NCBI GenBank assembly: GCA_903910765.1
Contig: CAIWBA010000291.1
Span: 147,492 to 211,491 of the forward strand
Length of the DNA stretch: 64,000 nucleotides
Reading direction: 5' to 3'
DNA from: an uncultured Bacteroidota bacterium
GTDB lineage: Bacteria > Bacteroidota > Bacteroidia > Chitinophagales > Chitinophagaceae
The notes under the pieces were generated by a model. That model did no database searches and was not told the origin of the DNA. It saw only the letters and a list, made by a program, of their open reading frames with translations. Positions 5,309 to 62,304 of the stretch are shown here, one piece after another. The first letter of the stretch is position 1, and each line of letters starts with the position of its first letter. Made by a program: the position numbers and the translations under genes.

Positions 5309-6202
5309 ATGGGAAAATTTGGCAAAAATAAGCTTCCAAAATTCATGGAAACTCCTGATACACGAATGGGATCTAATCCTCACATCCAGGAGGACACTCT
5401 CGGTGATATGTTACATCCACAAATAGTATCTATGTCTGATCATGGAGATGATCATGCAATGATTATAATTAGAACCAAGGACGGCGAAGAGTTAGAGCTT
5501 CAGTTTAACTATGATGGAGAAGGTTTATTAACTGCTCAACACGGCGAACATGAATATTCTATTCCAGTAGAGGTTGACTATACTGAGACTTCTGAAGTTG
5601 ATGAAAAACTTAAAGGTAAACAAAAGAATCTAGATAAGAATCATAATGGAAAAATTGATAAAGAAGATTTTAAATTACTTAATAAGTCTAAAAAAGAGGA
5701 ATCAGGTAAAGTTGCTGAAACATTTGAAAGTTTTGTAAATGAGTGCTGGACTCCTATGGAAGAAGGTTATAATATTGCGATGTCTGAACCAGCAAAGCGT
5801 GCAATTAAAGCACTATGTGAAGAAGTTTTAATTCAAGAAGCTCAAAGATGTGATGAAGATGCTGATCCAATGCATACTTATGAAAATTACCTAAACGAAT
5901 GCGGGTCATATATGACTGAATGTATGATGGAAGCAGCAGCTAGCGTACCAATAACTGAATCAGAACATCCGGTTTTAAATAATGAGCTAACTAGCTGGCT
6001 TACTAGTACTTTTGGACCAAATACCAAAACTGGGACATTTACATCAAATGGGTCAGATATTACTTTTATGGGAACTGCTCTTAATGGTAAACCTATCTCT
6101 AAAATTTATCCAAAGCCAATTAAGATTGGAGTAAATACCATGACTAATACTAAAGGGACCTGGAAAAGAGAGTTATCACAAATAATATTCACTACTGCCT
6201 AA
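5309..6202 (+). CDS. Putative internal head protein with EF-hand-like loop
   Basis: Late-promoter-like GATAAATAAT at 5280; DKNHNGKIDKED loop; internal TFESFVNE motif. Confidence 0.6.
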   Translation: MGKFGKNKLPKFMETPDTRMGSNPHIQEDTLGDMLHPQIVSMSDHGDDHAMIIIRTKDGEELELQFNYDGEGLLTAQHGEHEYSIPVEVDYTETSEVDEKLKGKQKNLDKNHNGKIDKEDFKLLNKSKKEESGKVAETFESFVNECWTPMEEGYNIAMSEPAKRAIKALCEEVLIQEAQRCDEDADPMHTYENYLNECGSYMTECMMEAAASVPITESEHPVLNNELTSWLTSTFGPNTKTGTFTSNGSDITFMGTALNGKPISKIYPKPIKIGVNTMTNTKGTWKRELSQIIFTTA

Positions 6203-6223
6203 TTTTACAAATCAATATAATAG

Positions 6224-6250
6224 AAAAGCTCGAGTAATCGGGCTTTTTTT
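6224..6250 (+). terminator. Intrinsic terminator with GTAA tetraloop
   Basis: AGCTCGA-GTAA-TCGGGCT-TTTTTT. Confidence 0.8.
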
Positions 6251-6268
6251 ATTTGGCTTGTATCTAGA

Positions 6269-6277
6269 ATAAATAAC
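6269..6277 (+). promoter_or_regulatory. Late-promoter motif ATAAATAAC
   Basis: Exact motif 4 nt before the ATG; recurs before many late genes. Confidence 0.65.
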
Positions 6278-6280
6278 CAT

Positions 6281-6553
6281 ATGGATATGCACAATTCAAA
6301 AATGTCATCTGGTGAAGTTACGGTTCCAGCAAGTTCGTTTAGTCAACAAACCGACCGAAATATTCAACCTAGCCCAACTGGAATTAGTATGGGTGGAATA
6401 CCAACACATTGGTTATCAAGTGCACCTATTTCTAGACGTGATATGACTGCTAATACAACGCCGCTTGGATCAAATCCACGAAATTATAAAGTTCTTAGAT
6501 TTGATGAATATCATTCTGGTAAATACCAAGAAGACCAAGAAATTAATAAATAA
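6281..6553 (+). CDS. Hypothetical late protein
   Basis: 90 aa after ATAAATAAC; C-terminal KVLRFDEY motif. Confidence 0.6.
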   Translation: MDMHNSKMSSGEVTVPASSFSQQTDRNIQPSPTGISMGGIPTHWLSSAPISRRDMTANTTPLGSNPRNYKVLRFDEYHSGKYQEDQEINK

Positions 6554-6567
6554 CAAAAACAATTACT

Positions 6568-6933
6568 ATGAGTAACAAAATTTTAAATTTTAAAGAATTT
6601 ACAACTGGTGGAAAGCTAAGCGATCCAAAGACTGCAACTAAGGTAGATGCAGCAGATTCAGTTAAAAAGGAGAAGTCAATTGATCAAGTAAAAAGAGCTG
6701 ACCTAACTCATCCTAAGATTACACTACCAGACTATTCAAAAACAGTTAAGAATCCAGTAATGGAAGGTATAATTGAAGATACTAATGTTAAAATTGATGA
6801 TCTTAAACTTCAACTATCTAAATTGAATCAGGCTGACTCAACGTATTTACAAAAGAAACGTGATATTGATGCTCAGATTGCTACATTAACTAAAGCAATT
6901 GAAGATGCGGCTAAATTAGCTGTAACAAAGTAA
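6568..6933 (+). CDS. Putative internal head protein
   Basis: N-terminus MSNKILNFKEFT; ATAAATAAC at 6546; C-terminal coiled coil. Confidence 0.6.
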   Translation: MSNKILNFKEFTTGGKLSDPKTATKVDAADSVKKEKSIDQVKRADLTHPKITLPDYSKTVKNPVMEGIIEDTNVKIDDLKLQLSKLNQADSTYLQKKRDIDAQIATLTKAIEDAAKLAVTK

Positions 6934-6946
6934 AAAAATTAACTAA

Positions 6947-7687: not shown

Positions 7688-7694
7688 TTAAGAT

Positions 7695-8081: not shown

Positions 8082-8102
8082 TTAATCTAACCAATATTAA
8101 AT

Positions 8103-8132: not shown

Positions 8133-8160
8133 TGTTTATATTAAAATATGATAATTTATA

Positions 8161-11045: not shown

Positions 11046-12167
11046 TTATAGGTACGCCATGTCAAACATGGAATCGCTAAAATAGCTGTCAAGCCAAAGG
11101 TTAAATTCTTTAAGTGAATACTGGGAATCTCGGTCATGAATATAGCAAAATAGATCATTAATATCCTTAATTCGATTTAATGAAACTATGTCGTCAACTG
11201 AACTAAATTTTCTTTTTAAGTCACCAATTGCCTTATTCCATAGAAATACTGAATATCCTTGTTTAATAAAGTTCATCATTTGAGTTTTTCCAGCCTTGTC
11301 TCGGTCAAATAGGACTTGAGTTGCACCTTTTGCTCCAAGATTAGAAAAAATACTTCTGGCCTTTGATGCTCCAGATGTTGCAATTGCATTGTCTACAAAT
11401 AGAGAATCAAATTGGCCCTCAGTCATTCTGATTGGTTTACTGAAATCAATATTTAAGATATTAAAATAGTTGTTTAAGAAATTAGCATCCTCTACTAATT
11501 CTTTAGTTAAACCTTTTTGAGAAAATATTTGAGAAAGATCAGTATATGATTTAATAATATATTTACGCTCTGCATTTGGGTCAAGATTACGAATTGAGAA
11601 TCCTAATAATCTGCCAGAGCGCCTATCAAAATTAAAAATATAAACTTTATTATCGGATGAGTCGGTATAGAGGCAATCTCCAAAATCTTCAATTAAGTCA
11701 AGGCCTCTGCCTTTAATGTATTGATATGCCTTTGAAGTTTCGTCAACGAGATCTAGTCGTTTTAAGGAAAACCGGTTAACTACATCAGTTATTTTAACCA
11801 ATTGAGAAGTATCTGAAGTTAGGAATCGTACTAGTTGATTTTCAGTTCTTTTTACTGGAGCTGGTTTAAATTCATCTTCTAAAATAAAACTAGGCAACAT
11901 TATTCCATGCTGCTTACTCATTTTGGCTACAAATTCGCCAACTGTCATGTATGCCATGCAGCCATCGTTAAAACATTTATAGGCTCCAGTATCTAAATAG
12001 AGATTACCACGTTTCTTAGCAACTTTTTTATCAGAGTCTCCGCAAATTGGACATGCAAAATTTAATTTACGCCCAGTATCTCCATCAATTTTCTGTTTTT
12101 CCGGTACATCATGAAATCTTTTACGTAATAAGTTTTCAATGAATGCGGTTATTTCCTCAATCTTCAT
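11046..12167 (-). CDS. gp61: DNA primase (T4 gp61-like)
   Basis: Zn ribbon CPICGDS...YKCFNDGC; TOPRIM EGQFDS and FDRD. Confidence 0.88.
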   Translation of the reverse strand: MKIEEITAFIENLLRKRFHDVPEKQKIDGDTGRKLNFACPICGDSDKKVAKKRGNLYLDTGAYKCFNDGCMAYMTVGEFVAKMSKQHGIMLPSFILEDEFKPAPVKRTENQLVRFLTSDTSQLVKITDVVNRFSLKRLDLVDETSKAYQYIKGRGLDLIEDFGDCLYTDSSDNKVYIFNFDRRSGRLLGFSIRNLDPNAERKYIIKSYTDLSQIFSQKGLTKELVEDANFLNNYFNILNIDFSKPIRMTEGQFDSLFVDNAIATSGASKARSIFSNLGAKGATQVLFDRDKAGKTQMMNFIKQGYSVFLWNKAIGDLKRKFSSVDDIVSLNRIKDINDLFCYIHDRDSQYSLKEFNLWLDSYFSDSMFDMAYL

Positions 12168-13779
12168 CTGTTACTGGTACCTTCTTTACAGGTTTTGGTT
12201 TAGTTGCACTTTTATAAGCCTTTTCTAAATCGTATCCCAGTTTAGAATAGTCTTTTCCAGTTTTAACGACTTTTTCATATTTGTCAGTTTGTAACCATAC
12301 ACCTCCATCTGGTGGATTAATTTCAGTCCAACCGTTTTCAGCTAAATAAGCTTCCATAACCGCTTGTGGAATTGCAAAAGGATCTTCTACTTCAATACCC
12401 TTTTTCTTTGCAACTCTATCTCTATATTTAGCAAGTTCATGTTTTGGAACAATTACAGTATTTAGGCCATATTTAGAAATAGCTGAAATATAGATTGCAA
12501 ATAATTCTTGAGGTACTGGAATATCAGGATTACCAATAAATGCTTGGCAACTTTCTGGAATTTCGCAATATTCTAAAGTTTCAGTATTTACTGAATATAG
12601 TGGGAACGTTTCTTCTGGAGTAAAATCTTTACTGCGGCTTCTAGATTTAACTACTTCAATTTTTCTAGTTAATTTAGGAGTTAACTCAGTAAATCCAATT
12701 GCAACCAATAATTTATTAATTGGTTCAATAATTAATCTAAAGAATTGTTGTTCACGATCCATAGGTACTGCAATTTCTTCAGGATAAGAACCTGGAGCAT
12801 AGGCAAAAATATCAAAATCATATGCATTTTGAGCTGCATAATAAAATTTAATTTTTGAACCGCTACGAATTAGTGGATACTTTTGATTGTTAGTTAATTT
12901 AATTAGGTGATTATGATAGGCAACTGCTCTACCATAAATTGGCATTCCAGTTTCCAATACTAACGGAACTAAACTTTTTAGATATTCTTCATAAACTCTA
13001 ACTGAGAAGTTAAATGCAATTTCTTCAACTGGTAAAGCATCACATTCAGTTTTTAGAGCTGCTAGTTTTGGGATAAGATCGCCTTCTAAGTCAATATTAT
13101 AGCCAATATCAAGTAGATAAGAATATAATATTTGTAGATGCTGTCTTGCCCAAACTGGATATGATGCTTGAATTGCTTCGAGGCCTTTAATAATTAATGA
13201 CTCTTTATCTAAAAGACGTTCATGTTTATTATCTTTATATGAAACTTTTAAAATATATTTTTTCTTTGCTAACCAAATTCCAGATCTAGATAAATTTTCA
13301 AGTTCAAAATTTTGGCGATTATCTGTATTAAAGTGAACTGCATATTTTTCAAAAGCTTGTTCAAAATAATTCTTAAGTCGATGACGATTAATTGCCAAAC
13401 AAAATTCAAGAGATTGGGTATCAGTCAATTCAAATCCTTCAATTGACTTTATTGCATAGTCAAAACATACATAAACTGAGTCAGTGTCAGTATATACTGC
13501 AGCTTCTTTCTCAATTTGGTTAACCGTTCTTCCAGTAATACCTAATTTTTCATGCAGCTCTGTGTCAAGATGCCACTTTTGTTGGAAATAGTGGTTGATT
13601 GCCTTAATTGAAAATTTAATTAGGTCTTGGCCTTGCAGCGTAATTGACTGGGCAATATCGTTATTATGAAAATAGAAATATTTGTTACCAAATGCTCCAT
13701 AGAAAGAGTTAATTAAGATCTTTATGGCGTTCTGTTTTAAGTCTAGTGACTTTATTTGTGATTCTAGTTGTTTGGACAT
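12157..13779 (-). CDS. Family B DNA polymerase, C-terminal subunit
   Basis: Motif B (KILINSFYGAFG), motif C (YTDTDSVY), KKKY, IKGLE. Confidence 0.92.
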   Translation of the reverse strand: MSKQLESQIKSLDLKQNAIKILINSFYGAFGNKYFYFHNNDIAQSITLQGQDLIKFSIKAINHYFQQKWHLDTELHEKLGITGRTVNQIEKEAAVYTDTDSVYVCFDYAIKSIEGFELTDTQSLEFCLAINRHRLKNYFEQAFEKYAVHFNTDNRQNFELENLSRSGIWLAKKKYILKVSYKDNKHERLLDKESLIIKGLEAIQASYPVWARQHLQILYSYLLDIGYNIDLEGDLIPKLAALKTECDALPVEEIAFNFSVRVYEEYLKSLVPLVLETGMPIYGRAVAYHNHLIKLTNNQKYPLIRSGSKIKFYYAAQNAYDFDIFAYAPGSYPEEIAVPMDREQQFFRLIIEPINKLLVAIGFTELTPKLTRKIEVVKSRSRSKDFTPEETFPLYSVNTETLEYCEIPESCQAFIGNPDIPVPQELFAIYISAISKYGLNTVIVPKHELAKYRDRVAKKKGIEVEDPFAIPQAVMEAYLAENGWTEINPPDGGVWLQTDKYEKVVKTGKDYSKLGYDLEKAYKSATKPKPVKKVPVTDED

Positions 13780-14472: not shown

Positions 14473-14850
14473 ATGCAACAATTAGATGAATTTATTGAGT
14501 ACCTTTATACAGTTGAAGAAAATTCAACACAATTAAATCAAGATCAAGTAAACAAACTTCATATGATTAAGTCTAAAGTTACTGAAATAGTGGATAAAGT
14601 TGAATCATTTACTACTAAAACAGTTAATCAACTACATCCAGTTTCTCAACCTCAAAGAGAACTTCAATTAGCTGAAAATTCAATATTTAGATTTGGACAA
14701 TTTTCTGAAATTAATGAGAAGATTGTACAAAGAGGTAAAAATTGGGTTGTTATGAATAAAAAGGGTACTAAAGTTTTAGGTACACATCCAACCAGAGAAA
14801 AAGCGGTTAAACAACTACAAGCAATTGAAATAAGTAAAGCAAAACACTAA
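14473..14850 (+). CDS. Putative head protein with small basic C-terminal domain
   Basis: Internal FRFGQFSEINE followed by IVQRGKNWVV...LGTHPTREKAVKQLQAIE. Confidence 0.65.
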   Translation: MQQLDEFIEYLYTVEENSTQLNQDQVNKLHMIKSKVTEIVDKVESFTTKTVNQLHPVSQPQRELQLAENSIFRFGQFSEINEKIVQRGKNWVVMNKKGTKVLGTHPTREKAVKQLQAIEISKAKH

Positions 14851-15632
14851 TGAAATTAAAAAGATTCCAACAGTTTATTACAGAGTCAAATTACGGGTGG
14901 TCTGACGAGTCCTACGAGTCATTTGCATACCGTCAAAGTAAAGAGACATTTAATGATTTTGAATTTGAAAAAGATATACTTGAGTTAGTGCAGAAAGTTG
15001 AACAGACTTGGGCCCATTTAGAAGATGTTTATGACTGGAATCGAGAGCGTCGACAATGGCGTAAAGACCATTTTGCGCTTGATGTAAAGGTACATGCTTG
15101 GCCAGATTCAGATAAAGTTAGGGAAATACTTGGAGAACCTGATATGCCAGAAGAGGCAATCAATGATGAATGGTGGGTATGGATGAATGATGAACGCGAA
15201 GGATTTGTTAATGACGTAGTTGAAATTTATCCATGGATTCAAGATATTGGTTGGGGAGGTAAAAGTGGAGGCTGGTTATTATTACAGCCACCTCATGAAG
15301 CTGAAGATATACGTAATGATATTGAGAGTGATTGTCAGATATACGGACTTACTAAAGAGGAGTTAAAGGCATCAGATGATTGGCAAGACATACTTAACGA
15401 TATTAATGATGAAACTCTTAATAATATGCAAGACTATGGACTATCAAATGAATCTGATGAGATTTTAAATTTAAAACAGCAAGTTGATAACATTAGGACT
15501 TATTTAACTAAAGAGTTAGCTGATTTAACTCAATGGGAATCTGATATGAATGCAATACAAGCTAGAGTTAGTAAATTTGAAGATAAGGCTGAAGAATATT
15601 TCTATGAATGGTTAAGGGGTAAAGAAGATTAA
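14850..15632 (+). CDS. Putative internal head protein, acidic and Trp-rich
   Basis: N-terminus MKLKRFQQFITES. Confidence 0.7.
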   Translation: MKLKRFQQFITESNYGWSDESYESFAYRQSKETFNDFEFEKDILELVQKVEQTWAHLEDVYDWNRERRQWRKDHFALDVKVHAWPDSDKVREILGEPDMPEEAINDEWWVWMNDEREGFVNDVVEIYPWIQDIGWGGKSGGWLLLQPPHEAEDIRNDIESDCQIYGLTKEELKASDDWQDILNDINDETLNNMQDYGLSNESDEILNLKQQVDNIRTYLTKELADLTQWESDMNAIQARVSKFEDKAEEYFYEWLRGKED

Positions 15633-23758: not shown

Positions 23759-25309
23759 ATGTTTCTAAACGTAAAAAGATTATCAATATTTGAGAAGTTA
23801 ATTCTTGAAACTGACCTGATTCAAATTGGATCAGGAATAGCTGACTTATTAGCTAAGGCCTCAACTTTAAATAAAGAAAAACAAGGAGATGATAAGAAGC
23901 TTGGAATTGGAGAGCTTATTAATAACCTGCTTGATGGGTTATTTAGACTAGATGAGGCTGCCCGTAATGCTAAATTATCTGATCAATCTTTCATAAACAC
24001 ATTTAATAATCCAGATACAAAGTCATTGATTGATATATATTTTGAATATTGTGAAGATCGATTAGCAATATTACGTAAAGAATTATTAGATGAAGTTAGT
24101 AAACCTGATTTTAATGAAGTTAAAGCCAATAAGATAAGTCAAAAAATGAAGATTTTTGCAGCTAGAATTGAAATGCTTGACTTAATTTATTCAAAAATTT
24201 CAGAATCTGATCTTAGTACTAGTATTAAGGATAAAATTAAAAAGATTCAAGAGGACCTTCTTAATGCTCATTCAGTAATGATAACTGTACCGGCAAAAAG
24301 AACACAAGAAGCCTATTCTAAATATCAAGCAGCACAAACAGACGAAGAAAAAACTGAAGCCGCTACCCAAATTTTATCAAATATTGAAGCAGCTGAACAA
24401 ATGACAGAAGATATGCCGCCTGAAATAGTTACTGGAATTAAAGATGCAGGTGAAGAGTATAAAGCAAAAATTGAAAATGATTTAGGTAAAGAAACCCTAG
24501 CTAATATTTTGGCAGGAGTTCACATAAATAAAAATGTTGCCTCCCTAATTCGTAGAATATTTCAATTTCAATATACAATGTGGGCAAATGAAGACGATAT
24601 TAACCGTGAAGCAAATGCTCTTAAAGTTAGTATTAATGGATTTCCAGATGTATCAGAAGATGCCAAAGAATATTTACGTAGACTTGTTGAGAATATTCAG
24701 GCCGAATTATTAAATAAGGCAAAGAGTAAAGAATTTGACACTAAGAAATATAAAGGAATTCATTATGATTTCAATAAGAAATTACCATTATACGAACGTA
24801 CTCCTTTGCCAGTTAGTGGTAAACAAATAGCAGATGATTCTAAATTAATGAAGTTTAGAAAAGCTTCACAAGAGTTAATGGGACTCTTTTTTGGAGGAGG
24901 TTCTGGACCAAGCGATGCACAGGGTCAAGCTTTTCATAATACAGGAAAATATTTGCATACAATATATGCAAAGAGTCTTAATGGACTAGGTAAAGTAATT
25001 GGAAAAGCAATTGGAGGTAGAGAAGGAGAAATGAAAGCTGATGCCTATACCAGAATGTTTATATTAGACACGTCAGTAGTTGATCAGGCTAAAACTAAAC
25101 AGGTTAGTGAAGATGGTGGAGTATCTGCTCCAGGAGTTGCAGTTCAAACTCCAGGATCAATTGGATCTATGGGACCAATTACACCTCCTACACAAACATC
25201 ACTAGGTTCAGGAGATAATTTTGGGCCAAAAATCAATCATAAAAAGAAAAAGACCAAATCTTCAGGTATTCTTGGATTTGCCGATTTTATAAAAGAACAA
25301 AATAATTAA
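23759..25309 (+). CDS. Large helical putative internal head protein
   Basis: N-terminal SIFEKLILE and C-terminal ILGFADFIKE motifs. Confidence 0.65.
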   Translation: MFLNVKRLSIFEKLILETDLIQIGSGIADLLAKASTLNKEKQGDDKKLGIGELINNLLDGLFRLDEAARNAKLSDQSFINTFNNPDTKSLIDIYFEYCEDRLAILRKELLDEVSKPDFNEVKANKISQKMKIFAARIEMLDLIYSKISESDLSTSIKDKIKKIQEDLLNAHSVMITVPAKRTQEAYSKYQAAQTDEEKTEAATQILSNIEAAEQMTEDMPPEIVTGIKDAGEEYKAKIENDLGKETLANILAGVHINKNVASLIRRIFQFQYTMWANEDDINREANALKVSINGFPDVSEDAKEYLRRLVENIQAELLNKAKSKEFDTKKYKGIHYDFNKKLPLYERTPLPVSGKQIADDSKLMKFRKASQELMGLFFGGGSGPSDAQGQAFHNTGKYLHTIYAKSLNGLGKVIGKAIGGREGEMKADAYTRMFILDTSVVDQAKTKQVSEDGGVSAPGVAVQTPGSIGSMGPITPPTQTSLGSGDNFGPKINHKKKKTKSSGILGFADFIKEQNN

Positions 25310-25315
25310 TAAATA

Positions 25316-25783
25316 ATGAGTACAGTTAAAACCTTTCAAGATTTTATAAGTGGTGGAGATAATATTGACGCGACTAATATTGAAACCCCGAATATTGAAA
25401 ATACTTTGGAAATTCCTCAACAGGAACTTGGAATCGATCATAAATCACAACATGAAACTGAAAACTATATGTTTTTTAGTAATTTAGAAACAATCCAACG
25501 ATTAATTAAGATTATGTTGGAAATGGATCCTATGAAAGTTGATCAGTTATTAAAAAATGGTCATAATTGGGCAGAAGATCATGTAACATCATCTAAAGAT
25601 GATCTTGAAGAAGTTGCTGATTTTTTAATGGGAGAAATGACTGAACCTGAACTTAACACTGAAGTTGAAGAAGGTTCTCATAATTACTCATGTAATGAAT
25701 GCGGTTTAACATATGAGATGCATGAAGTTACAGAAGACCATACTTGTTCATGTGGTAATAAATTAGAAGAAAATTGGGGATAA
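25316..25783 (+). CDS. Putative internal head protein with C-terminal zinc ribbon
   Basis: MSTVKTFQDFI; HNWAEDH; CNECG...CSCG. Confidence 0.7.
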   Translation: MSTVKTFQDFISGGDNIDATNIETPNIENTLEIPQQELGIDHKSQHETENYMFFSNLETIQRLIKIMLEMDPMKVDQLLKNGHNWAEDHVTSSKDDLEEVADFLMGEMTEPELNTEVEEGSHNYSCNECGLTYEMHEVTEDHTCSCGNKLEENWG

Positions 25784-25785: not shown

Positions 25786-26277
25786 ATGAAAAACTCTTAT
25801 ATAAAACCATTTAGTAAATTTAATGAGTCTGCCTCTGAACCTATTTCCAACGCAAAGTGGTATTATGGAATTGCAGACTGTCATGGATTAGAATCATTTA
25901 TTGAAGAACCTGAGATAGACGATGCTAGTACTTTAGATAATATGTTTAGTTATGGGCTTTCTCCGTATGACGCAAATGACGATCCTGCTAAAAAGGAAAT
26001 TAATCATAATTTAAACATGATGCAAATGAGATGTAATTTTAATAGTCAACGTCATCCAGTAGTTTACCGAGCTAGTTTAGAAGAAGATGATGCAGAAATG
26101 GTACAAGATCTATTAGATAGTGGAGACTATATTAATGCACTTAAAGTAGTTAAGGGCAATTCAAAAGAAGTTCAATTAACTAGAGGCAAAGGAGGTTCAT
26201 CAGAAAAAGCTTGGAGAATGATTCCAAACCCAGATTTAGACCCAATGCACAATGATAATAGCTTAGGATCTCATTAA
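25786..26277 (+). CDS. Putative internal head protein
   Basis: Start moved to the second Met to remove the overlap; MKNSYIKPFSKFNES. Confidence 0.65.
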   Translation: MKNSYIKPFSKFNESASEPISNAKWYYGIADCHGLESFIEEPEIDDASTLDNMFSYGLSPYDANDDPAKKEINHNLNMMQMRCNFNSQRHPVVYRASLEEDDAEMVQDLLDSGDYINALKVVKGNSKEVQLTRGKGGSSEKAWRMIPNPDLDPMHNDNSLGSH

Positions 26278-26617: not shown

Positions 26618-27157
26618 ATGAAAAAACAGCGAGTAAAACTATTTGAATCTTTTGTTGTGGAGAGTTTATCTCATTATCAAGAGTACGACTTTACTAAAAA
26701 TGAGGTTGATATTGAATTTTATAGCCAAGTTAAAATACAACCTGAATCAAATGACGATGAGACGGTTAACCAAATGATAAATTATGGACTTACTGCAGGT
26801 ATTCAAGAAATTGAAGATTTTGGATTAAGTTTTGTTAAAATTCGGTATAATATGGAGCCTCTTCTTGACAGGACTGGGATTTATGAGATTGATCTAAATT
26901 TAGAGTCAGTATATATGATGGGGACCTATACCCTATTAGATGATTCTAAAAATGGCGAAACCTCTTATGAATTTGAAATTGAAGATCTTGGACCATTTGA
27001 TGGAAGAGTTAAAGTAAAGTATGGAGAATTACCGTTTTATCCAAATGGTATTGAGATCAGTACAAATTTTTTAACTAGAGGTGGCCACGAAATTGTATTT
27101 GATCCACAGAATCCAGATCCTTCTAAATATACATACACAATAGGGATAGGGGACTAG
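26618..27157 (+). CDS. Putative internal head protein, acidic
   Basis: MKKQRVKLFESFVVES. Confidence 0.7.
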   Translation: MKKQRVKLFESFVVESLSHYQEYDFTKNEVDIEFYSQVKIQPESNDDETVNQMINYGLTAGIQEIEDFGLSFVKIRYNMEPLLDRTGIYEIDLNLESVYMMGTYTLLDDSKNGETSYEFEIEDLGPFDGRVKVKYGELPFYPNGIEISTNFLTRGGHEIVFDPQNPDPSKYTYTIGIGD

Positions 27158-27220: not shown

Positions 27221-27229
27221 ATAAATAAC
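27221..27229 (+). promoter_or_regulatory. Late-promoter motif ATAAATAAC
   Basis: After a terminator, before the baseplate cluster. Confidence 0.7.
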
Positions 27230-33496: not shown

Positions 33497-34402
33497 TTGA
33501 AAAATCATTATGAAACCCTTGGTATTGCAGAAGATGCAACTCAAGCAGATATAAAAAAGGCTTACCGAAAGCTTGCAACTAAATATCATCCAGATAAAAA
33601 TAATGGTAGTGCTGAAGCTGAGAGTAAATTTAAAGAGGTTGCTGAGGCATATGAAACCGTAGGTAATGATGATAAGCGAAAAGCATATGACAATTCTAGA
33701 AAATTTAGAGGAGCACCAAATGCAGATTTCTTTGGAAATTTTGGATCATTTAGAGATTTTTCATTTGGAGGAAGACCTCATGACCTTAGACACTTAACTA
33801 TTGTTGTTGACAAATGGGCAACAATTAAGGAGTTAATGGAAGGTTCAACATTTGATATTCAGTATGTTGTAACTAAAACAGAGTCAGGTTCTACAACCTC
33901 TGATAATAAGCAAGTGAAGGTTAAAATTGACTTATCAAATGAAATTTATCCAATTTCAATAGAGAATGGAAGATATTCAATTACATTAAAGGTTAGAGGA
34001 GGAGGATCCAGTCAACTAGTTGAAGAATCTGATTTTTTTGGTAAAAAAAGAAATGGATTAATTTCAGGAGACTTAGTAGTTCGAATAAACATTGATATGA
34101 TGGGACTTTCACTAGAACAAAGTGACATTATTCAAAACTTTGAGCTTAGTTTACATGATATATTATTCACTGAAGAAGTTATACTGGAAAGCCCAATGGG
34201 CAAAAAGTATCGTATTAAAGCAGTTAATCGAGATACACTAAGCGATATTTCGGTTAAGATACCAAATCAAGGACTGCTCTCTGCCTTTGGTAATAAAGGA
34301 AACTATATTTTTAAAATATTGGTTAAAAAGCCAAATTTTTCAAACATTAGTGAAGAAAACTTACAAATTTTAAAAGACTTGCTGATTGACGTTAATAAAT
34401 AA
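33497..34402 (+). CDS. dnaJ: DnaJ-family co-chaperone (J domain plus C-terminal domain, no Zn finger)
   Basis: [29 protein letters not shown]; TTG start. Confidence 0.88.
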
Positions 34403-34441
34403 TGTTAGTACAGCCTTCCTAGAGTAATAGGAATTGGCTCG

Positions 34442-34449
34442 TATAAATA
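34442..34449 (+). promoter_or_regulatory. T4-type late promoter TATAAATA
   Basis: Exact T4 late consensus upstream of the protease/scaffold and capsid genes. Confidence 0.75.
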
Positions 34450-34469
34450 ATCAAAAAAGTCTTACTAAG

Positions 34470-38253: not shown

Positions 38254-38262
38254 ATAAATAAC
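38254..38262 (+). promoter_or_regulatory. Late-promoter motif ATAAATAAC
   Basis: After the capsid terminator. Confidence 0.7.
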
Positions 38263-38294: not shown

Positions 38295-38660
38295 ATGAGC
38301 AATTCTGTTTTAAACTACTCACAATTTCTTTTAGAAAAGAAATCAATGAATCAACAAATGGCAATGTTACCTACAGGTAAAGGTTCAAAATCTACTAAAT
38401 CAGTAGCATCTAAAATGTCTGAACTTCCAAAAGGTAAAGGAAAAGGTATTAGCAAATCAGTAAAACCTGAAATGTCTACTCTTCCTAAAGGTAAAGGTAA
38501 AATGATTGGAAAATCAGTAGATACTAAAGTTTCTAAACTACCTACAACTAAAGGTTCGTCTCCTAAAAAATCAGTAGACTCTAAAATGTCTAAATTGGTA
38601 ATTAAAGGTAAAGCAATCAGCAAGAAAGTTGAACCTAGTATGGCTAAAATGCCTAAGTAA
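38295..38660 (+). CDS. Lys-rich repeat protein, putative DNA-condensing internal head protein
   Basis: MSNSVLNYSQFLLE followed by about six 19-aa SVxxKMSxLPKGKG repeats; ATAAATAAC at 38254. Confidence 0.7.
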   Translation: MSNSVLNYSQFLLEKKSMNQQMAMLPTGKGSKSTKSVASKMSELPKGKGKGISKSVKPEMSTLPKGKGKMIGKSVDTKVSKLPTTKGSSPKKSVDSKMSKLVIKGKAISKKVEPSMAKMPK

Positions 38661-38679: not shown

Positions 38680-38985
38680 ATGTCAGATCAAAATAAAAAT
38701 AAGGTCGCGTCTTTTCAATCATTTGTTATTCAAGAAAATTCAATAAAGGATTTAGTTGGAAAAACTGATGATGAACAGTTGGACTTAGATGATGCACGTA
38801 GTATTGGAAAGAAGATTTCCAAAATGAAAGGCGAAGATCGTAAGAAATATGTTGGAATTGTTAATTTTATGGGAGCTTCTTGTAGAATTTACAATGAAAT
38901 TTGGGCTAACTATAAACCAGTTGATCCATCAACTAAAAAATCAAACCGTGGAAAAGAATTCCAAGGTGAAAAAGAGGTAGGATAA
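38680..38985 (+). CDS. Putative internal head protein
   Basis: KVASFQSFVIQEN near the N-terminus. Confidence 0.65.
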   Translation: MSDQNKNKVASFQSFVIQENSIKDLVGKTDDEQLDLDDARSIGKKISKMKGEDRKKYVGIVNFMGASCRIYNEIWANYKPVDPSTKKSNRGKEFQGEKEVG

Positions 38986-40572: not shown

Positions 40573-41223
40573 ATGGACATGTTTAATGTAAAACGCAGAG
40601 ATAATCCTTCAATGGATAAACATATGGACCTAAAGAAACCTGGTTTCGGCGGTCCAAATTCAAAGGAAGACTTTGATAAATCAAAAAGAAAGTCTCTTGA
40701 AGGCTATCAACGAGTAATTGACAGAAATGCTGATTTTGAAGGTGGTAATTTTAATCACAATTATGATCCAACATGGAAAGTAGTAACTCGTGACTTAATT
40801 TCAAGAACTTCAAAGAAAAAACCATTTAATCCAATGTACGCAAAACAAACAATTGCAACAGTTAATGCTGTTGAAGAAGGTACTATCAAACGCTTTGAAC
40901 AATTCGTTAATGAAAACGAAGGCTTTAATATGTTTGCTGAAGCCGAAGAAGAAACTCCAGAAATGGAAGAAACTACTGAAATGGAAGAGACTCCAGAGGT
41001 AGATGAAGAACAAGTAGAAATGCTAATGGCTGACTTCGGAGATAATCTTGAAGAAATGATTGATGAAATTGCTGAAAAAATGGAACTTGAAAAAGAAGCC
41101 GTTTGCGATATTTTATGTGCAGCTATCAAGAAAATGTGCGCTCCTGCTGAAGAAGAGGAAGAAGAAAACGAAGAATCTGAAGAGTCAGAAGAAAACGAAG
41201 AAGAAGAAGAAAACGAAGCATAA
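40573..41223 (+). CDS. Putative internal head protein with Glu-rich C-terminus
   Basis: Internal TIKRFEQFVNENE followed by a very acidic tail. Confidence 0.7.
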   Translation: MDMFNVKRRDNPSMDKHMDLKKPGFGGPNSKEDFDKSKRKSLEGYQRVIDRNADFEGGNFNHNYDPTWKVVTRDLISRTSKKKPFNPMYAKQTIATVNAVEEGTIKRFEQFVNENEGFNMFAEAEEETPEMEETTEMEETPEVDEEQVEMLMADFGDNLEEMIDEIAEKMELEKEAVCDILCAAIKKMCAPAEEEEEENEESEESEENEEEEENEA

Positions 41224-41226: not shown

Positions 41227-41577
41227 ATGAAAGTAGTTAAATTATTTGAACAATGGTTAGCTGAAGAAGAGGAAATTGACTCTCCAAAAAAGGAAGAGTC
41301 TCCAAAACCTGCTAATTCACATACGATTAATGTATCTGGAACAGATGCTGGCGATTTTGAAATTATAGCAACTGCTGATTCAAAAGATACAACTGACTCA
41401 GTTAATGCATTTAGTGCAATTAGTTCAACTAACTCTAGTATTAAATCTGGTGCAGCAGTTATGGTTTCCCCAAAAGCTGAAAAATCTGGAGATTTTGATA
41501 TTGTTATAATAAACAATAGAGAAAAACCTGAAGAATCATTAATTTATTCAGGTCAAGTCATAACGGCTAAATCGTAA
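41227..41577 (+). CDS. Putative internal head protein
   Basis: MKVVKLFEQWLAEE. Confidence 0.7.
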   Translation: MKVVKLFEQWLAEEEEIDSPKKEESPKPANSHTINVSGTDAGDFEIIATADSKDTTDSVNAFSAISSTNSSIKSGAAVMVSPKAEKSGDFDIVIINNREKPEESLIYSGQVITAKS

Positions 41578-51712: not shown

Positions 51713-53095
51713 TTAAGAAGTTTTTTCACTTGACAATTGCTCTTCTAATTTTTTCATTTCATTTTTGGTATTTACACGACCATTATATAATCTGGTAAGA
51801 ATTGTTCTAGCAGCTGAATCTGTTTTATTTGTGAAGACTGTATTATTTTTAGTTAATATTTGATCAGGTTGTAATTCAATACCTTCTCGCATTTTTCCTA
51901 AGTATGCATCTGGAGAAATATTAAACTGAATTTGGATATTTGGATACATTGAAGCAAAGTCAAAACACGAAACATATTTGTAATATCCTGGTTCTGGTTT
52001 AGCTACGTATGCACCATCATATGTTGCATCAGCTTCTAATTCTCTTCGATCATTTGCCATATACCTACCACGATCTAAGAATTCACGACACATTAAAGAT
52101 TCAGTAATGAATACTGCTGAGAATACTTTTGAAACATCAACTTTTGCAAATTTTGATATTGCAAATGCTACATCAAGTAGTCCAAGTTTATCTTCAATTA
52201 GTTTAATAAGAACTGTATCAATAATGTTATATTTAATAAAGTTTTCAATATCTTGTTGAGCTTCCATCATTGTTGCATATTCACTATGTAATTTAGTTGT
52301 TCCTAATACTAAGTTTGCAATATACTCTAATTTATAATTTTCAACTACTTTATATGGTTTAGTATTCATAAATACTTCCATGTAATCCAAAAGGCCTAAA
52401 TGAATTGGCATTTTTGATTTACCAATTAAGGTTTTAGATGGCATGGTTTTCATTGGATCAATATCTAAATTCTTACATCGATTAATTAGATAAATCCAGT
52501 CAAATCCAATAACATTCCAACCAGTTAAGAATGGAATTTTTGGAAGAGCTTTATGAAAAAATGCTTTCATTAATTCTACTTCTGTTTCAAAGAACATATA
52601 TTTAAGAGTAAAGATTTGACCATGTGCTTTAAAATAGTCATTCACTTCATCTTGCATTTGTAGAATTGGAGCTTCGTCTAATTTCTTCATGGTTGACATT
52701 ACGAAACAAACATTCTCTTCATTAACAAAAGTAATTAAGTTAACTGGCATTGCTGCTTTTGCTGGATCAGGAAACTCTTGTGAAGTTAACTGAATCTCAA
52801 TATCTAAATAGAATTTCTTTGGGCTGTCATCAGAATAGATTGAAGCAATTTCAGTTTCATTTAATCTGGTTTGAGTTAATTCTTCAAGTCTAAAACGGCT
52901 TAACCATTTACCTTGAACCTTTTTTACAAACTTTCCATCCCAGTTACGGTGTTCAGTTGGAGTAGGCGTTAAGTTCCAATTGTAAAGATCATGTGGAACA
53001 ATTGGTTTCTTCATAAATCCAATTGTTCCATCTGGTTTATAATAAGAAATAACTAGAGTCGAGTCTTCTGTGTGAAATTCTGTGCTTACTATCAT
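51713..53095 (-). CDS. Family B DNA polymerase, N-terminal subunit (3'-5' exonuclease plus motif A)
   Basis: YLDIE, GWNVIGFD, YNIIDT, YDGAYV, FDFASMYPNI, NISPD. Confidence 0.92.
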   Translation of the reverse strand: MIVSTEFHTEDSTLVISYYKPDGTIGFMKKPIVPHDLYNWNLTPTPTEHRNWDGKFVKKVQGKWLSRFRLEELTQTRLNETEIASIYSDDSPKKFYLDIEIQLTSQEFPDPAKAAMPVNLITFVNEENVCFVMSTMKKLDEAPILQMQDEVNDYFKAHGQIFTLKYMFFETEVELMKAFFHKALPKIPFLTGWNVIGFDWIYLINRCKNLDIDPMKTMPSKTLIGKSKMPIHLGLLDYMEVFMNTKPYKVVENYKLEYIANLVLGTTKLHSEYATMMEAQQDIENFIKYNIIDTVLIKLIEDKLGLLDVAFAISKFAKVDVSKVFSAVFITESLMCREFLDRGRYMANDRRELEADATYDGAYVAKPEPGYYKYVSCFDFASMYPNIQIQFNISPDAYLGKMREGIELQPDQILTKNNTVFTNKTDSAARTILTRLYNGRVNTKNEMKKLEEQLSSEKTS

Positions 53096-53725: not shown

Positions 53726-53734
53726 ATAAATAAC
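53726..53734 (+). promoter_or_regulatory. Late-promoter motif ATAAATAAC
   Basis: Before the tail sheath gene; a second copy at 53663 sits in a small hairpin. Confidence 0.7.
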
Positions 53735-56826: not shown

Positions 56827-57165
56827 ATGAAACGATATATATCTCTATTTGAAAACTTTAATGATAATATTGATTATATTGTAAAACCAGTAGGTGAGTA
56901 TTTTAGAATATTTGCTAAAACTCCTAAGATGGAAGCAGATGGAAGCGACTATAAAGATTGCGAAACTTTATTTGGTAAGGGTACAATGTGGACAGATTAC
57001 GATAGTCAAGGTAGTGCCGAAAGGGCAATTGATAGTATGTCAAATACAGGTAATCAATTGTACCGTTCAGGTAAAGTACACGGTTTAACCAATCATGACT
57101 CAGTCGGTATGAGTAAACCTAGTTATGGCAAACCTCACGGACCTAGCGACTATATGGCTAATTAA
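56827..57165 (+). CDS. Putative internal head protein
   Basis: MKRYISLFENFND. Confidence 0.65.
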   Translation: MKRYISLFENFNDNIDYIVKPVGEYFRIFAKTPKMEADGSDYKDCETLFGKGTMWTDYDSQGSAERAIDSMSNTGNQLYRSGKVHGLTNHDSVGMSKPSYGKPHGPSDYMAN

Positions 57166-57262: not shown

Positions 57263-57835
57263 TTAGTCTGCAAGTCCCATAATTTCTTCAAGAACCCTAA
57301 TTGAGTCAGTTGAATCATTATGTAAAATACCAGTTCCACCAGCATCTGTCCACTTATTTAATTTTGTATCAAAGTCATCAATTAGGATATCGTATGAATC
57401 TCTAGCATACTTCCATTTTTCTTGATCTAATACAATTCTAGTACTACTAGTAAAGTCTTCAGGATTAGTAACTGGAACCTCATCAATATGTAAGTGTAAT
57501 TTAATCCATTTTGCTTTACCAGCTAAACATTCAGGACTTTGGCTAGGAGCAGATAAGATAATTGGATTATATTGTTTTAAGTAGTCCCATAATTCTCTGC
57601 CGTCTTTTGTCCATGGTAGGTCTGCCCAAAAATCTTCGCCTAATGTATCTAAGATTGGCCAAATCGAATTTTTGCCATTTGCCTTTTCATACTCATATGG
57701 AGAAAGTTTTTCAGGGTTTTCAGAAATTTCCATAAAACCTCGGTTAAAGTCAACTAAGACTCCATCTAAATCACAAAAAATTGTGTATTTTCCGCCTCTT
57801 TTTTCAAAGAGAAATTGTTTAAATTTTTTAAGCAT
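57263..57835 (-). CDS. HAD 5'(3')-deoxyribonucleotidase-like protein with capsid-targeting-like N-terminus
   Basis: IFCDLDGVLVDF, ILSAP, GKAKW, ILIDD; start MLKKFKQFLFE. Confidence 0.8.
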   Translation of the reverse strand: MLKKFKQFLFEKRGGKYTIFCDLDGVLVDFNRGFMEISENPEKLSPYEYEKANGKNSIWPILDTLGEDFWADLPWTKDGRELWDYLKQYNPIILSAPSQSPECLAGKAKWIKLHLHIDEVPVTNPEDFTSSTRIVLDQEKWKYARDSYDILIDDFDTKLNKWTDAGGTGILHNDSTDSIRVLEEIMGLAD

Positions 57836-58160
57836 TTTCTTTAAGTTCAAATTGTGTATCTTGATCCTTATTTATTATAGCTAATAGATCATTTGCTATT
57901 ACTAAGTGATAGCCTACTCCATCCCATGTTACATCAAGGCCTGAATATCTTTGGTATAAAACTTTATCTCCAGCTTTAACTGGACAACCTGAATTATTAG
58001 GAACTGCATGTCCTACTGAGATTACGGTTCCGGTATTTGGGCGTTTACGTGCATCAACTGATAAAATAATACCTGTTTCTGTTTTTTTCTCTACTGTATC
58101 TGGTAAAACCAGAAGTCTTTCGAATAGCGGCTGAAAGCCTGTTTTAATATCAACACTCAT
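57828..58160 (-). CDS. groES: Co-chaperonin GroES-like (functional analogue of T4 gp31)
   Basis: PLFERLLV, KTETGIIL, GTVISVG, VKAGDKVLY..YSG, DLLAII. Confidence 0.9.
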   Translation of the reverse strand: MSVDIKTGFQPLFERLLVLPDTVEKKTETGIILSVDARKRPNTGTVISVGHAVPNNSGCPVKAGDKVLYQRYSGLDVTWDGVGYHLVIANDLLAIINKDQDTQFELKENA

Positions 58161-59272: not shown

Positions 59273-59278
59273 TTTATT

Positions 59279-59560: not shown

Positions 59561-59580
59561 TGTGTAGTTAATTATATTTT

Positions 59581-60630: not shown

Positions 60631-60658
60631 GTTTATAAATGTTTAATAATTTAATAGA

Positions 60659-60685
60659 ATTGTACTAATAAAGTGATAAGAGTTT
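60659..60685 (-). promoter_or_regulatory. Early/middle promoter motif AAAC-N17-TACAAT
   Basis: Upstream of ssb. Confidence 0.55.
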
Positions 60686-60690
60686 TCAAA

Positions 60691-60724
60691 AAATAAGGGC
60701 AAGTTTTAAAACCTGCCCTTATTT
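60691..60724. terminator. Hairpin, likely terminator
   Basis: AAATAAGGGCA...TGCCCTTATTT. Confidence 0.7.
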
Positions 60725-60749
60725 GTGACTTTATTAGAATAAAAAAGAA

Positions 60750-60956
60750 TTAGGCTTTAGTATCAACCTTAGCTCCTTGAACGTGAGTACGTCCTTCTTG
60801 ACAAAGTGCTTTAATGTCTTGAAGCACTTTACGAGTTCTAGTTCCTGCTGATTTATTTCCTTTTTCATAGAATTTTCCAGCTTCTGCTTCTAATTGAGAA
60901 ACTTGTTCCTTTAATGATGTTAACCATGTAGGTGTAGATGTTGTAGATGTTGTCAT
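60750..60956 (-). CDS. Histone H1-like protein (Hc1 family)
   Basis: EKGNKSAGTRTRK motif typical of the Hc1 N-terminal domain. Confidence 0.75.
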   Translation of the reverse strand: MTTSTTSTPTWLTSLKEQVSQLEAEAGKFYEKGNKSAGTRTRKVLQDIKALCQEGRTHVQGAKVDTKA

Positions 60957-60976
60957 AATTTCAAATATTTTTTTAT

Positions 60977-61003
60977 CTTATATTTGAGAAATCCACCCGG
61001 TTT
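60977..61003 (-). promoter_or_regulatory. Early/middle promoter motif AAAC-N17-TATAAG
   Basis: Upstream of the Hc1-like gene. Confidence 0.55.
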
Positions 61004-61009
61004 TAAATA

Positions 61010-61735
61010 TTATTGATATTTATTTGAAAATTTAGCTGCTGGGTAAACTTTTTTAGCAAAATTAACCCAACCCGTCATTACTCTGTCAAATTCCAGTTCT
61101 GAAATTATAGCAGTTTCAACAAATGGAGATAAGTATTCAGCAAATGCTTGATCCAATGTAATTCTTTTCTTTTTTGCAGCAGCATACATTCCAGCTACCA
61201 TTGCAGGAACTTCGTCTAATAATAAAAAATACTTATATGAATTTTCAGCCTTTGACCTTGCGTTTTTTGGAGCATTGACAATATGGCCGTGTCTTTTGTT
61301 AATACCTTTTTGTAAAAGGTGCTCAAGTTCATGGCGAATATTATCAATTAATTTATAATTTAAGTCTGCATAACACTGAGGTTCAGCATCAGGACTAATA
61401 TAAACAACAATTTCAATTTCAGGTTCTTCGGTAGCAGTTTCATTTGGGATATAGGCATCTGCATTTATTGCAAAACCTTTATTTTCAAAATTAATTACTT
61501 CCCAAGGAAGTCCGCTAAAATCTTTAGATTCAGATGGATTAAATTCATCAACTCTAACTATCTTAATTAAAATTGTAAATTCTAATGGATCAATATATTC
61601 AAACTGGTTAGATAGTTCCTTATTTAATTTAGCACCAGCTGTTTTTTTAACAAAACCAAATACGTCTTTTGCAAAAATAGAGGTAAGCGAATCATATTTT
61701 GATTCAGTTATAAATTGTACAAATCGTTTTATCAT
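61010..61735 (-). CDS. Putative zincin metallopeptidase with capsid-targeting-like N-terminus
   Basis: MIKRFVQFITES; RHELEHLLQ and downstream DEVPA. Confidence 0.65.
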   Translation of the reverse strand: MIKRFVQFITESKYDSLTSIFAKDVFGFVKKTAGAKLNKELSNQFEYIDPLEFTILIKIVRVDEFNPSESKDFSGLPWEVINFENKGFAINADAYIPNETATEEPEIEIVVYISPDAEPQCYADLNYKLIDNIRHELEHLLQKGINKRHGHIVNAPKNARSKAENSYKYFLLLDEVPAMVAGMYAAAKKKRITLDQAFAEYLSPFVETAIISELEFDRVMTGWVNFAKKVYPAAKFSNKYQ

Positions 61736-62304
61736 TATTTAGACTTAATAAAATTTACATTTAACTTATTAGTAAATGGTACTAATTTACCATCAAATTC
61801 TATATCAATATCACCTTTATCTATACCTAGTTTCTTAGCAGATGATGCGGATTTTAGTTTGTCATAAACTTCTTTATCTAGAAAACCTTTACCTCTAAGC
61901 GCATCAACTATTTCAACTTTTTTTGAATCTAATTGATTATCAGTAATCCATTTGTCTAAATCTACCTGTTTGATTTGGTATTCTTTATAACGCTTAACAC
62001 CTCCACCGTCTGTATATTTAGAGTGCCATTTTTTATCATGATCTAATAAAACAATATTAATATCACTACCATCACTAGGTCCTGCTACTGGAGCATTTGG
62101 ATCAACTGGTAAAACTGATGCGGCAAATGGATCACTTGATGGAACTCCCATATCAGTAGGTGGCATAGAATTTTCATCAGGTAATGGAGCAGGCTCAGAA
62201 GGAGCTGGCGTAATTTCAGCTGGCGGCGGCTCAACTGGTGGTGGAGTAGGGGCTTCGTCTGCCTCTAATAATAACTTAAATTGTCTAAAGTCTAAAATTC
62301 CCAT
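61735..62304 (-). CDS. Putative internal head protein with Pro-rich linker
   Basis: MGILDFRQFKLLLEA; TATAAATAAC at 62324-62333 on the minus strand. Confidence 0.7.
   Translation of the reverse strand: MGILDFRQFKLLLEADEAPTPPPVEPPPAEITPAPSEPAPLPDENSMPPTDMGVPSSDPFAASVLPVDPNAPVAGPSDGSDINIVLLDHDKKWHSKYTDGGGVKRYKEYQIKQVDLDKWITDNQLDSKKVEIVDALRGKGFLDKEVYDKLKSASSAKKLGIDKGDIDIEFDGKLVPFTNKLNVNFIKSK

Follow-up and report, generated by a model that had tools for sequence, protein, structure and literature searches.

The capsid-targeting sequence (CTS) of phage T4 is the textbook phage route for loading proteins into the head, and it is also an engineering tool for packaging foreign proteins. To our knowledge, the CTS has been described on only a few cargo proteins. 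Here we describe a 64,000-nt stretch of DNA (positions 147492-211491 of the 254,203-bp contig CAIWBA010000291.1, called C291 below; the whole stretch is referred to as the window) from an uncultured T4-like jumbo myophage. Thirteen proteins encoded in the window, and about 48 on the contig as a whole, carry at their N-terminus a short peptide, the tag, which is probably a targeting leader of the T4 CTS type.

In T4, internal proteins enter the scaffolding core by means of the CTS, and gp21 then trims them (PMC5694885, PMC3012670). The CTS propeptides are 10-20 residues long (PMC5694885), and the internal proteins of T-even phages are a diverse, defence-countering set with only the CTS in common (PMC5694885, PMC3012670). 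According to Mullaney and Black (1996), as that work is cited in PMC5694885, the peptide is sufficient for targeting. The propeptides of giant phages are thought to act in a CTS-like way (PMC5694885).

The CTS of T4 IPII and IPIII, MKTYQEFIAE, is encoded twice in the T4 record, in the ipII/ipIII region; a CTS is also present on Alt and gp24, and it is removed by gp21. The tag has the same register (Lys, aromatic, x, x, aromatic, aliphatic, x, Glu), and YQEFIAE fits the strict tag pattern given below. Residues 59-65 of T4 gp23, FGSFLTE (ending at Glu65), also fit the tag pattern, at what we take to be the maturation cut of gp23. The two systems further share a short N-terminal leader on unrelated proteins, a leader end of the gp21 type (L/I-x-E), a protease of the gp21 family and a gp23-like capsid protein. 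Late expression would be another point of likeness, and is deduced here from the placement of a late-promoter-like octamer, ATAAATAA.

The N-terminal tag and its enrichment

The tag has the consensus M-x(0-6)-[IL]-K-x-[FY]-x-x-[FWY]-[ILV]-[NT]-E-[SNAG]. Our curated set contains ~48 proteins of the ~330 open reading frames (ORFs) on C291 (~15%), including the 13 inside the window. These 13 N-terminal peptides had been listed in an original prediction made from the letters of the window, and all were found where it had placed them; the count was correct for the window but too low for the whole contig. Genes were called along the contig by a neutral first-ATG rule; it gives the motif no advantage and yields 329 ORFs. 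This rule was used because selecting starts by ribosome-binding-site score picks downstream starts and drops many of the tags. The 48 members were curated by hand from a loose regular expression, to which a K-L-F-E-x-[FHW] subclass was added; a first position-specific scoring matrix (PSSM) of the tag over-fits and misses the KLFE-x-[FH] subclass. Since the set was curated by hand, its exact size is soft (~40-50).

Searching residues 1-16 of the ~330 ORFs for the strict core of the tag, [FYW]xx[FYW][ILVMF]xE, gives 26 hits, as compared with 1.0 ± 1.0 (maximum 4) in 200 per-protein shuffles; the pattern greatly exceeds chance and is not confined to the window. With the tag PSSM, 30 of 329 N-termini score at least 12, versus one of 5,308 internal segments. 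When the same gene caller and PSSM were applied across the bin, 31 of 304 ORFs on C291 were found, and none of 1,833 on the other contigs. A hydrophobic-x-Glu sequence (h-x-E) ends 38 of the 48 tags and defines leaders of 11-19 residues (mode 13), with Ser, Asn, Ala, Gly or Lys in the following P1' position. These leaders match the T4 CTS in length (PMC5694885).

The tagged ORFs of the window are as follows, where a slash marks the predicted end of the leader and lengths are in amino acids (aa).

6568-6933, + strand: 121 aa, MSNKILNFKEFTTGG; PSSM 19.4; weak, tag without the final Glu; ATAAATAA at 6546-6553
14850-15632, + strand: 260 aa, leader MKLKRFQQFITE/S; PSSM 29.8; second motif ETLNNMQDYGL at residue 192
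23759-25309, + strand: 516 aa, degenerate leader MFLNVKRLSIFEKLILE/T; GFADFIKEQNN at the C-terminus, kept in one orthologue
25316-25783, + strand: 155 aa, MSTVKTFQDFISGG; PSSM 18.8; tag without the final Glu; ATAAATAA at 25309-25316 abuts the ATG
25786-26277, + strand: 163 aa, leader MKNSYIKPFSKFNE/S, found with the tag PSSM; second motif at residue 52
26618-27157, + strand: 179 aa, leader MKKQRVKLFESFVVE/S, found with the tag PSSM; second motif at residue 52
38295-38660, + strand: 121 aa, leader MSNSVLNYSQFLLE/K; tag kept in orthologues; ATAAATAA at 38254-38261
38680-38985, + strand: 101 aa, leader MSDQNKNKVASFQSFVIQE/N
41227-41577, + strand: 116 aa, leader MKVVKLFEQWLAE/E; orthologues have MIKLFEQWLAEE and similar
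56827-57165, + strand: 112 aa, MKRYISLFENFND; KLFE subclass, no clear h-x-E
57263-57835, - strand: HAD/NT5C-like nucleotidase, 190 aa, leader MLKKFKQFLFE/K before the DxDGVL start of the fold; HAD 23.7 bits and NT5C 19.1 bits, neither reaching its cut-off; ATAAATAA at 57868-57875
61010-61735, - strand: 241 aa, leader MIKRFVQFITE/S; PSSM 32; tagged homologues in three relatives
61735-62304, - strand: 189 aa, leader MGILDFRQFKLLLE/A, then a linker rich in Pro and Ala; ATAAATAA at 62325-62332

The weaker members are those at 6568 and 25316, which lack the Glu and end in GG, at 56827, which lacks h-x-E, at 23759, where Leu replaces the second aromatic residue, and at 62304 (-), where the Glu comes two residues late. 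The ORF at 38295 directly follows the capsid gene, and the mature part of its product is lysine-rich and repetitive (KGKGK/SKSV units), with an isoelectric point of 10.6; it may be a histone-like internal protein that binds DNA. The product of 61010-61735 (-) contains HELEH at residue 135, yet matched no peptidase family, or any other Pfam family, in the Pfam scan.

Proteins behind the tag

When the tags are trimmed, the 48 proteins fall into 45 BLASTP clusters (E<1e-3), with similarity in only three pairs. The original prediction called the tagged proteins unrelated, and this is largely borne out; the reservation is that ~12 of them share a second short motif, and apart from this motif no family-wide similarity is found beyond the leader. 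Only three matches to cargo domains exceed the Pfam cut-offs (NUDIX, PG_binding_1 and an AAA_5/MoxR-like ATPase), while matches to HAD/NT5C, an Acb1-like 2H phosphoesterase and a nucleotidyltransferase lie below them, and 27 of the 48 proteins match no family at E<=0.01 in the Pfam scan. In an AlphaFold2 (AF2) model of the HAD protein, the fold is complete from residue 17 onwards (predicted local distance difference test, pLDDT, >95), and residues 1-13 form a detached short helix (pLDDT <50).

The second motif, ..[DE]x[TI][LIV][ND][NQ]M-x-x-[YF]G[LF].. (for example DETLNQMxDYGL), occurs 12 times on C291, and all 12 occurrences are in tagged proteins, where shuffling predicts 0.9. Its carriers are the window ORFs 14850-15632, 25786-26277 and 26618-27157 plus nine ORFs of the contig outside the window. 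In most cases it comes after an acidic linker and lies 20-90 residues from the N-terminus; it is not present in a 270-kb relative. These ~12 proteins constitute a lineage-specific family of modules. Many tagged genes stand in tandem clusters at C291 83-94 kb.

Codon use at the tag positions is the genome average (TTT for 35 of 40 Phe codons vs 0.83 genome-wide; GAA for 20 of 28 Glu codons vs 0.79). Residues that replace one another in the tag belong to the same class (F/Y/W; I/V/L) and are encoded by different codons, and the tag sits at a variable offset from the ATG (0-7 codons). Together, these properties exclude a signal at the nucleotide level.

Two observations concern individual cargo proteins. 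A tagged 183-aa protein encoded outside the window (C291 100179-100730) weakly resembles Acb1 (anti-CBASS) and members of the 2H phosphoesterase superfamily, at E ~1e-3 and below cut-off; should these matches be real, the packaged cargo would contain a counter-defence enzyme that degrades cyclic nucleotides. In addition, one 315-aa protein of the 270-kb relative (G001 136312) matches two separate tagged proteins, those at C291 64989 (69% identity) and 173277 (60% identity), which suggests that the modules behind the leader undergo fusion or fission.

A protease-scaffold fusion with tag-like repeats

The head module of the window encodes a protease whose helical arm repeats a sequence in the register of the tag. 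The features are:

34434-36452, + strand: prohead protease-scaffold fusion, 672 aa, TTG start (phrog_207; PF03420; 5JBL)
35334-35795, + strand: eleven tandem 14-residue repeats, [IV]-x-[YF]-[ST]-x-[YH]-[LVI]-[AG]-E-x-[VL]-x-x-x (protease ORF residues 301-454)
33497-34402, + strand: DnaJ homologue directly upstream of the protease (J domain, PF00226, 90 bits; DnaJ_C, PF01556, 31 bits)

The fusion protein comprises a gp21-type protease domain (~residues 30-178), a long helix and a C-terminal helical domain. It belongs to the gp21 family on several grounds: it scores 35 bits against PF03420 (S77; cut-off 27), more than its 29 bits against S80, BLASTP aligns it with T4 gp21 at E=3e-7, including the HP and SSRG motifs, and Foldseek matches the protease domain of its AF2 model to 5JBL (T4 gp21) with E=2e-11 and a template modelling score of 0.74-0.80. 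His96 and Ser151/152, which we take to be the catalytic residues, are invariant in 17 relatives.

The repeats have the register aromatic-x-x-aromatic-aliphatic-x-Glu, which is that of the tag. When a reduced-alphabet profile is made from the repeats of 16 phages and nothing else, 21 of 329 N-termini reach a score of at least 8 (20 of these being curated tags), as compared with six of 4,133 internal segments. Essentially all related loci keep the array, and it can still be recognized in a huge phage with only 39% identity in the capsid protein. AF2 models the repeats as one long helix (residues 296-453); the model of the 672-aa protein has low confidence outside the protease and C-terminal domains (mean pLDDT 56), and so this helix is to be taken as secondary structure only.

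A copy of the late motif is found at 34395-34402, 39 nt upstream of the TTG at 34434, and in relatives with an ATG start the protease N-termini align upstream of the first in-frame ATG of the present gene (34617). Both facts indicate that the gene probably starts at a non-ATG codon.

The DnaJ gene occupies the same position in distant relatives (L066, L090). Other chaperone genes are those for a ClpB/C-like double AAA+ ATPase and for Cpn10 (2999-4978 and 57828-58160 of the window), as well as for a Cpn60-like protein at C291 219190-220587. The last of these is recognized by its N-terminal sequence only. The chaperone set is unusually full.

The predicted capsid site and internal copies of the tag

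The same predicted cleavage pattern appears in the capsid protein, and one further copy of the tag lies inside a neighbouring head protein:

36477-38177, + strand: major capsid protein, gp23-like, 566 aa (phrog_138)
36624-36638, + strand: predicted maturation site of the capsid protein, S-I-N-E/S (Glu53), from clade conservation
40573-41223, + strand: 216-aa protein of the head module; its tail is acidic, as is that of T4 gp67, with which it was compared
40882-40920, + strand: internal tag copy TIKRFEQFVNENE, residues 104-116 of ORF 40573 (PSSM 28.1)

The capsid site is conserved across the clade as [ILV]-[NF]-E-[SAQN], and after it comes a stretch whose variation consists of insertions and deletions; this is how a maturation site is expected to look. 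The site agrees with the end of the tag in P3, P1 and P1'. The product of ORF 40573 is a candidate prohead-core protein, judging from its sequence features, and its internal tag copy is kept in all 46 orthologues retrieved (28-91% identity).

Internal matches to the strict pattern number 26 on the contig, where 13.3 ± 3.7 are expected. Seven of these are in the protease repeat array (one ~150-residue stretch), one is in ORF 40573 and one is due to a mis-called start, which leaves the remainder at chance. Five internal or C-terminal copies had been proposed for the window. The copy in 40573 is solid; that at the C-terminus of ORF 23759 (GFADFIKEQNN) is plausible, being identical in one orthologue of 54% identity, the single comparison available; and TFESFVNE (5309), RFDEY (6281) and RFGQFSEINE (14473) are not separable from chance.

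Late-promoter-like motif and predicted timing

A copy of the octamer ATAAATAA(C) is found 12-32 nt ahead of the start codon (ATG) in the sheath-like gene, in the tube gene and in several other large ORFs presumed to be structural. The example before the sheath is:

53726-53733, + strand: late-promoter-like ATAAATAA(C), 31 nt upstream of the tail sheath gene

This sheath gene is weakly identified (PF17482, 23.6 bits vs a cut-off of 26.9); other copies before structural genes are at 27221 and 39941. Of the 48 tagged genes, 27 have the octamer in the 100 nt upstream, as have 36 of the 282 others (Fisher p=2.5e-10), and 44 of 48 tagged genes, as opposed to 97 of 282 others, are at most two genes downstream of a copy on the same strand. 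In the window, ten of the 13 tagged genes are within this distance, and 25316, 25786 and 26618 are three, four and six genes downstream, respectively, in the same same-strand run. The earlier claim that most tagged ORFs belong to units headed by the late motif is in agreement with these counts. The contig also encodes a 139-aa sigma factor with region 2 only (C291 222437), an architecture that we believe to be that of T4 gp55. From the placement of the octamer, the tagged genes are predicted to be expressed late.

The phage, its relatives and the turnover of tagged genes

C291 has 33% G+C and is by far the longest contig of its bin (2.5 Mb, 338 contigs). Phage genes in the window include those for the gp23-like major capsid protein (phrog_138), the head maturation protease (phrog_207), the tail tube and the baseplate hub, with further matches to Cpn10 and, weakly, to a tail sheath. 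Two separate ORFs, at 12157-13779 (-) and 51713-53095 (-), resemble halves of a family B DNA polymerase, judged from their N-terminal sequences only. In GenBank, the nearest relatives of the capsid protein are from uncultured huge phages (39% identity), Prevotella Lak phages (~33%) and Tenacibaculum phages PTm1 and PTm5 (30%), along with Sphingomonas phage PAU, and megablast of the structural block against GenBank phages gave no close match. IMG/VR holds many closer relatives, with capsid proteins 56-96% identical, among them several contigs of 250-270 kb.

The tag is kept in nearly all of 120 listed homologues of the HAD/NT5C-like nucleotidase (40-88% identity), where it precedes DxDGVL. Within these homologues it varies in its residues (MLKKFxxF[IVL]xE, MNRPLPFKLFLES, MNQTFKSFEQFVNES) and in the length of the linker. 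In the 270-kb relative mentioned above, whose capsid protein is 79% identical, 31 of the 48 tagged proteins have homologues, nearly all of them tagged, and 17 have none. A homologue is thus present for 65% of tagged genes versus 78% of other genes, a difference that is not significant at the 0.05 level (Fisher p=0.066), and the median identity is 58% for tagged proteins versus 73% for others. The tagged set tends to turn over faster than the other genes. If real, faster turnover would resemble, by analogy, the hypervariable internal-protein loci of T-even phages.

Proposed mechanism and alternatives

We propose that the N-terminal peptide is a prohead-core targeting leader of the T4 CTS type which is removed by the protease, and we assign this reading a probability of roughly 0.7. 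The original prediction had likewise seen a T4-like address label, used on more proteins than in T4 and on enzymes among them. All the computational tests that could be run favour this view: the register, the gp21-family protease, the h-x-E end, the link to the late motif, the detached tag in the AF2 model, the conservation of the tag and the domains on tagged proteins (NUDIX, PG_binding_1 and AAA_5 above the Pfam cut-offs, HAD/NT5C and Acb1-like 2H below them).

According to this proposal, ~48 proteins would be made late in infection with a leader of 11-19 residues. The leader would form a short amphipathic helix in the same register as the 14-residue repeat of the scaffold arm, and would probably join the assembling core by packing against the scaffold repeats. 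Once the shell is assembled, the protease would cut behind the Glu, as at the capsid site I-N-E/S and probably at every scaffold repeat, so that mature cargo would be freed in the head and the small peptides would leave. The predicted cargo includes small basic and acidic proteins, the NUDIX protein, the AAA+ MoxR-like ATPase, the HAD/NT5C-like nucleotidase (below cut-offs), proteins with weak 2H and nucleotidyltransferase matches, and one protein that carries the peptidoglycan-binding domain. By analogy with the internal proteins of T4 and with Alt, the cargo may be ejected into the host with the DNA; we place the chance that most of the tagged set has this fate slightly below even.

A number of observations weigh against targeting by the tag, or limit how far it can be taken. 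Ten of the 48 tags are without a clean h-x-E end, and the ~12 carriers of the second motif mean that the 48 proteins are not fully independent. A full-alphabet repeat profile did not find the tags when run on the N-termini, because the repeats use Tyr-Tyr and the tags Phe-Phe or Phe-Trp; the likeness between repeat and tag exists only at the level of residue classes. Conversely, the scaffold repeats were not matched in hmmsearch with an 11-column hidden Markov model of the tag, which is too weak for this purpose. Matches to the ATAAATAA octamer show no excess over the AT-rich window as a whole (24 vs 17.7 expected), and only their placement is informative. Forty-eight species amount to ~1.1 MDa at one copy each, far above the handful in T4, and a nucleotidase or a 529-aa AAA+ ATPase is not an obvious candidate for ejection. 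Finally, what the analysis shows is the motif with its N-terminal position, portability and conservation, the protease family, the repeats and the link to the late-promoter-like octamer, whereas scaffold binding by the tag, packaging, cleavage and ejection are inferred.

An alternative is that the peptide is a processing propeptide only, that the cargo reaches the head by another route, and that tag and repeat look alike as substrates of a common protease. The parts common to the tag, the repeat, the capsid site and the T4 gp23 site are in fact P7, P4, P3 and P1 of a cleavage site, and T4 gp22 manages without CTS-like repeats. Still, the conserved I-K two to three residues before the first aromatic residue and the strict N-terminal position exceed what T4-type cleavage needs (L/I-x-E), the ten tags lacking a clean h-x-E end keep the aromatic pattern nonetheless, and the equivalent T4 peptide suffices for targeting, as the 1996 work is cited. 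We consider processing alone improbable, though it is the strongest of the competing explanations. A role as a client tag for the phage chaperones (DnaJ, Cpn10/Cpn60, the ClpB/C-like AAA+ protein), in folding or turnover, is less probable again. Aromatic and aliphatic residues flanked by basic ones do resemble the binding motifs of DnaJ and DnaK, the gene for a full DnaJ immediately precedes that for the protease, with synteny in relatives, and Cpn10 and the ClpB/C-like ATPase are encoded as well; but a chaperone signal leaves unexplained the terminal h-x-E, the match to the scaffold repeat and the capsid site, the T4 CTS register and the late-gene bias. It is possible that the DnaJ beside the protease is a helper in head assembly or cargo loading, rather than an alternative to targeting.

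The tagged genes might instead be one fast-evolving multigene family of which only the N-terminus is still recognizable, with no targeting role. Such a family would fit the exclusive sharing of the second motif by ~12 members, the tandem clusters at 83-94 kb and the tendency to higher turnover in retention and median identity. A single paralogue family is nevertheless rejected by the 45 clusters among the 48 trimmed proteins; moreover, unrelated domains stand behind the tag (NUDIX, AAA_5 and PG_binding_1; below cut-off HAD/NT5C, and weakly 2H), and the HAD fold is complete without the tag in the AF2 model. We rate this origin as low as the chaperone signal. Least probable by a wide margin is conservation of the nucleotides themselves, in which case late genes would carry, at their 5' end, an mRNA element or one for translation initiation. 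Both the genome and the K, F, I, N and E codons are AT-rich, but average synonymous codon use, residue classes kept through different codons and a movable ATG (0-7 codons) effectively refute it, and none of the 1,833 other ORFs of the AT-rich bin gives a match.

A more specific form of core targeting is that the leader mimics the scaffold: each cargo protein would bear one arm repeat, co-assemble with the arm and be cut by the tethered protease in the P7-P4-P3-P1 register, and the clade would in this manner deliver a large, fast-turning-over set of proteins. We offer this as a tentative idea which is more likely wrong than right. Were it true, it would explain how CTS-type signals are read, with the tag helix against the repeat helix as a concrete model of recognition, and ready-made proteins would enter with the DNA, including candidate counter-defence enzymes (NUDIX, HAD/NT5C-like, and the weak Acb1-like 2H). 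The clade of uncultured 250-270-kb phages puts a label much like that of T4 on ~15% of its genes, and the tag consensus would serve as a sequence rule for predicting the packaged proteome of uncultured phages from the genome. The tagged set also amounts to a list of candidate injected effectors, enzymes included, which may act before any phage gene is expressed.

Comparison with known systems

Short portable peptides that bring unrelated cargo to a shell of the HK97 fold are known from other sources, namely the cargo-loading peptides of encapsulins and the C-terminal coat-binding helices of scaffold proteins, for example that of P22. In those systems the peptide binds to the shell protein and is retained, whereas in the present phage it ends in a predicted cleavage site and its likely partner is the scaffold or core; we claim no homology. 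In the giant phages phiKZ, 201phi2-1 and SPN3US, which have an S80 protease that cuts after S/A/G-x-E, many head-internal proteins are likewise processed after x-E by a gp21-related protease (PMC5694885). Their propeptides, however, are mostly >100 residues long and share no short motif, as compared with leaders of 11-19 residues and a single consensus in the present phage, where long protein-specific propeptides (~100 aa or more) are not found. The protease of the present phage also scores higher with S77 than with S80.

Tenacibaculum phage PTm1, the nearest cultured relative, encodes the same fusion (ORF-300, "prohead core scaffolding protein and protease") immediately upstream of its capsid protein (30% identity). 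Its repeats are also units of the aromatic...L-S-E type, although of another sequence (WIKxDFTKxLSEG). Only ~5 weak leaders (KLYxxISEN and similar) are present among its 301 ORFs, which places the expansion of the tag in the clade of C291. We found no account of such a CTS expansion in the searchable literature, which is itself incomplete.

Compared with T4, the system described here is of a known kind, that of the CTS, and departs from it in three respects. One is scale, with ~48 proteins (~15% of ORFs) as against a handful. Another is the cargo, which includes recognizable enzyme-type domains, unlike that of the T4 CTS system. The third is the protease, which is fused to a scaffold arm of 11 tag-like repeats; gp21 of T4 is a protein of 212 aa, and no tag-like repeats were seen when we looked for them in T4 gp21, gp22, gp67 and gp68. 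It is this combination of scale, enzyme-type cargo domains and a repeat-bearing protease-scaffold arm that is new relative to the T4 system.

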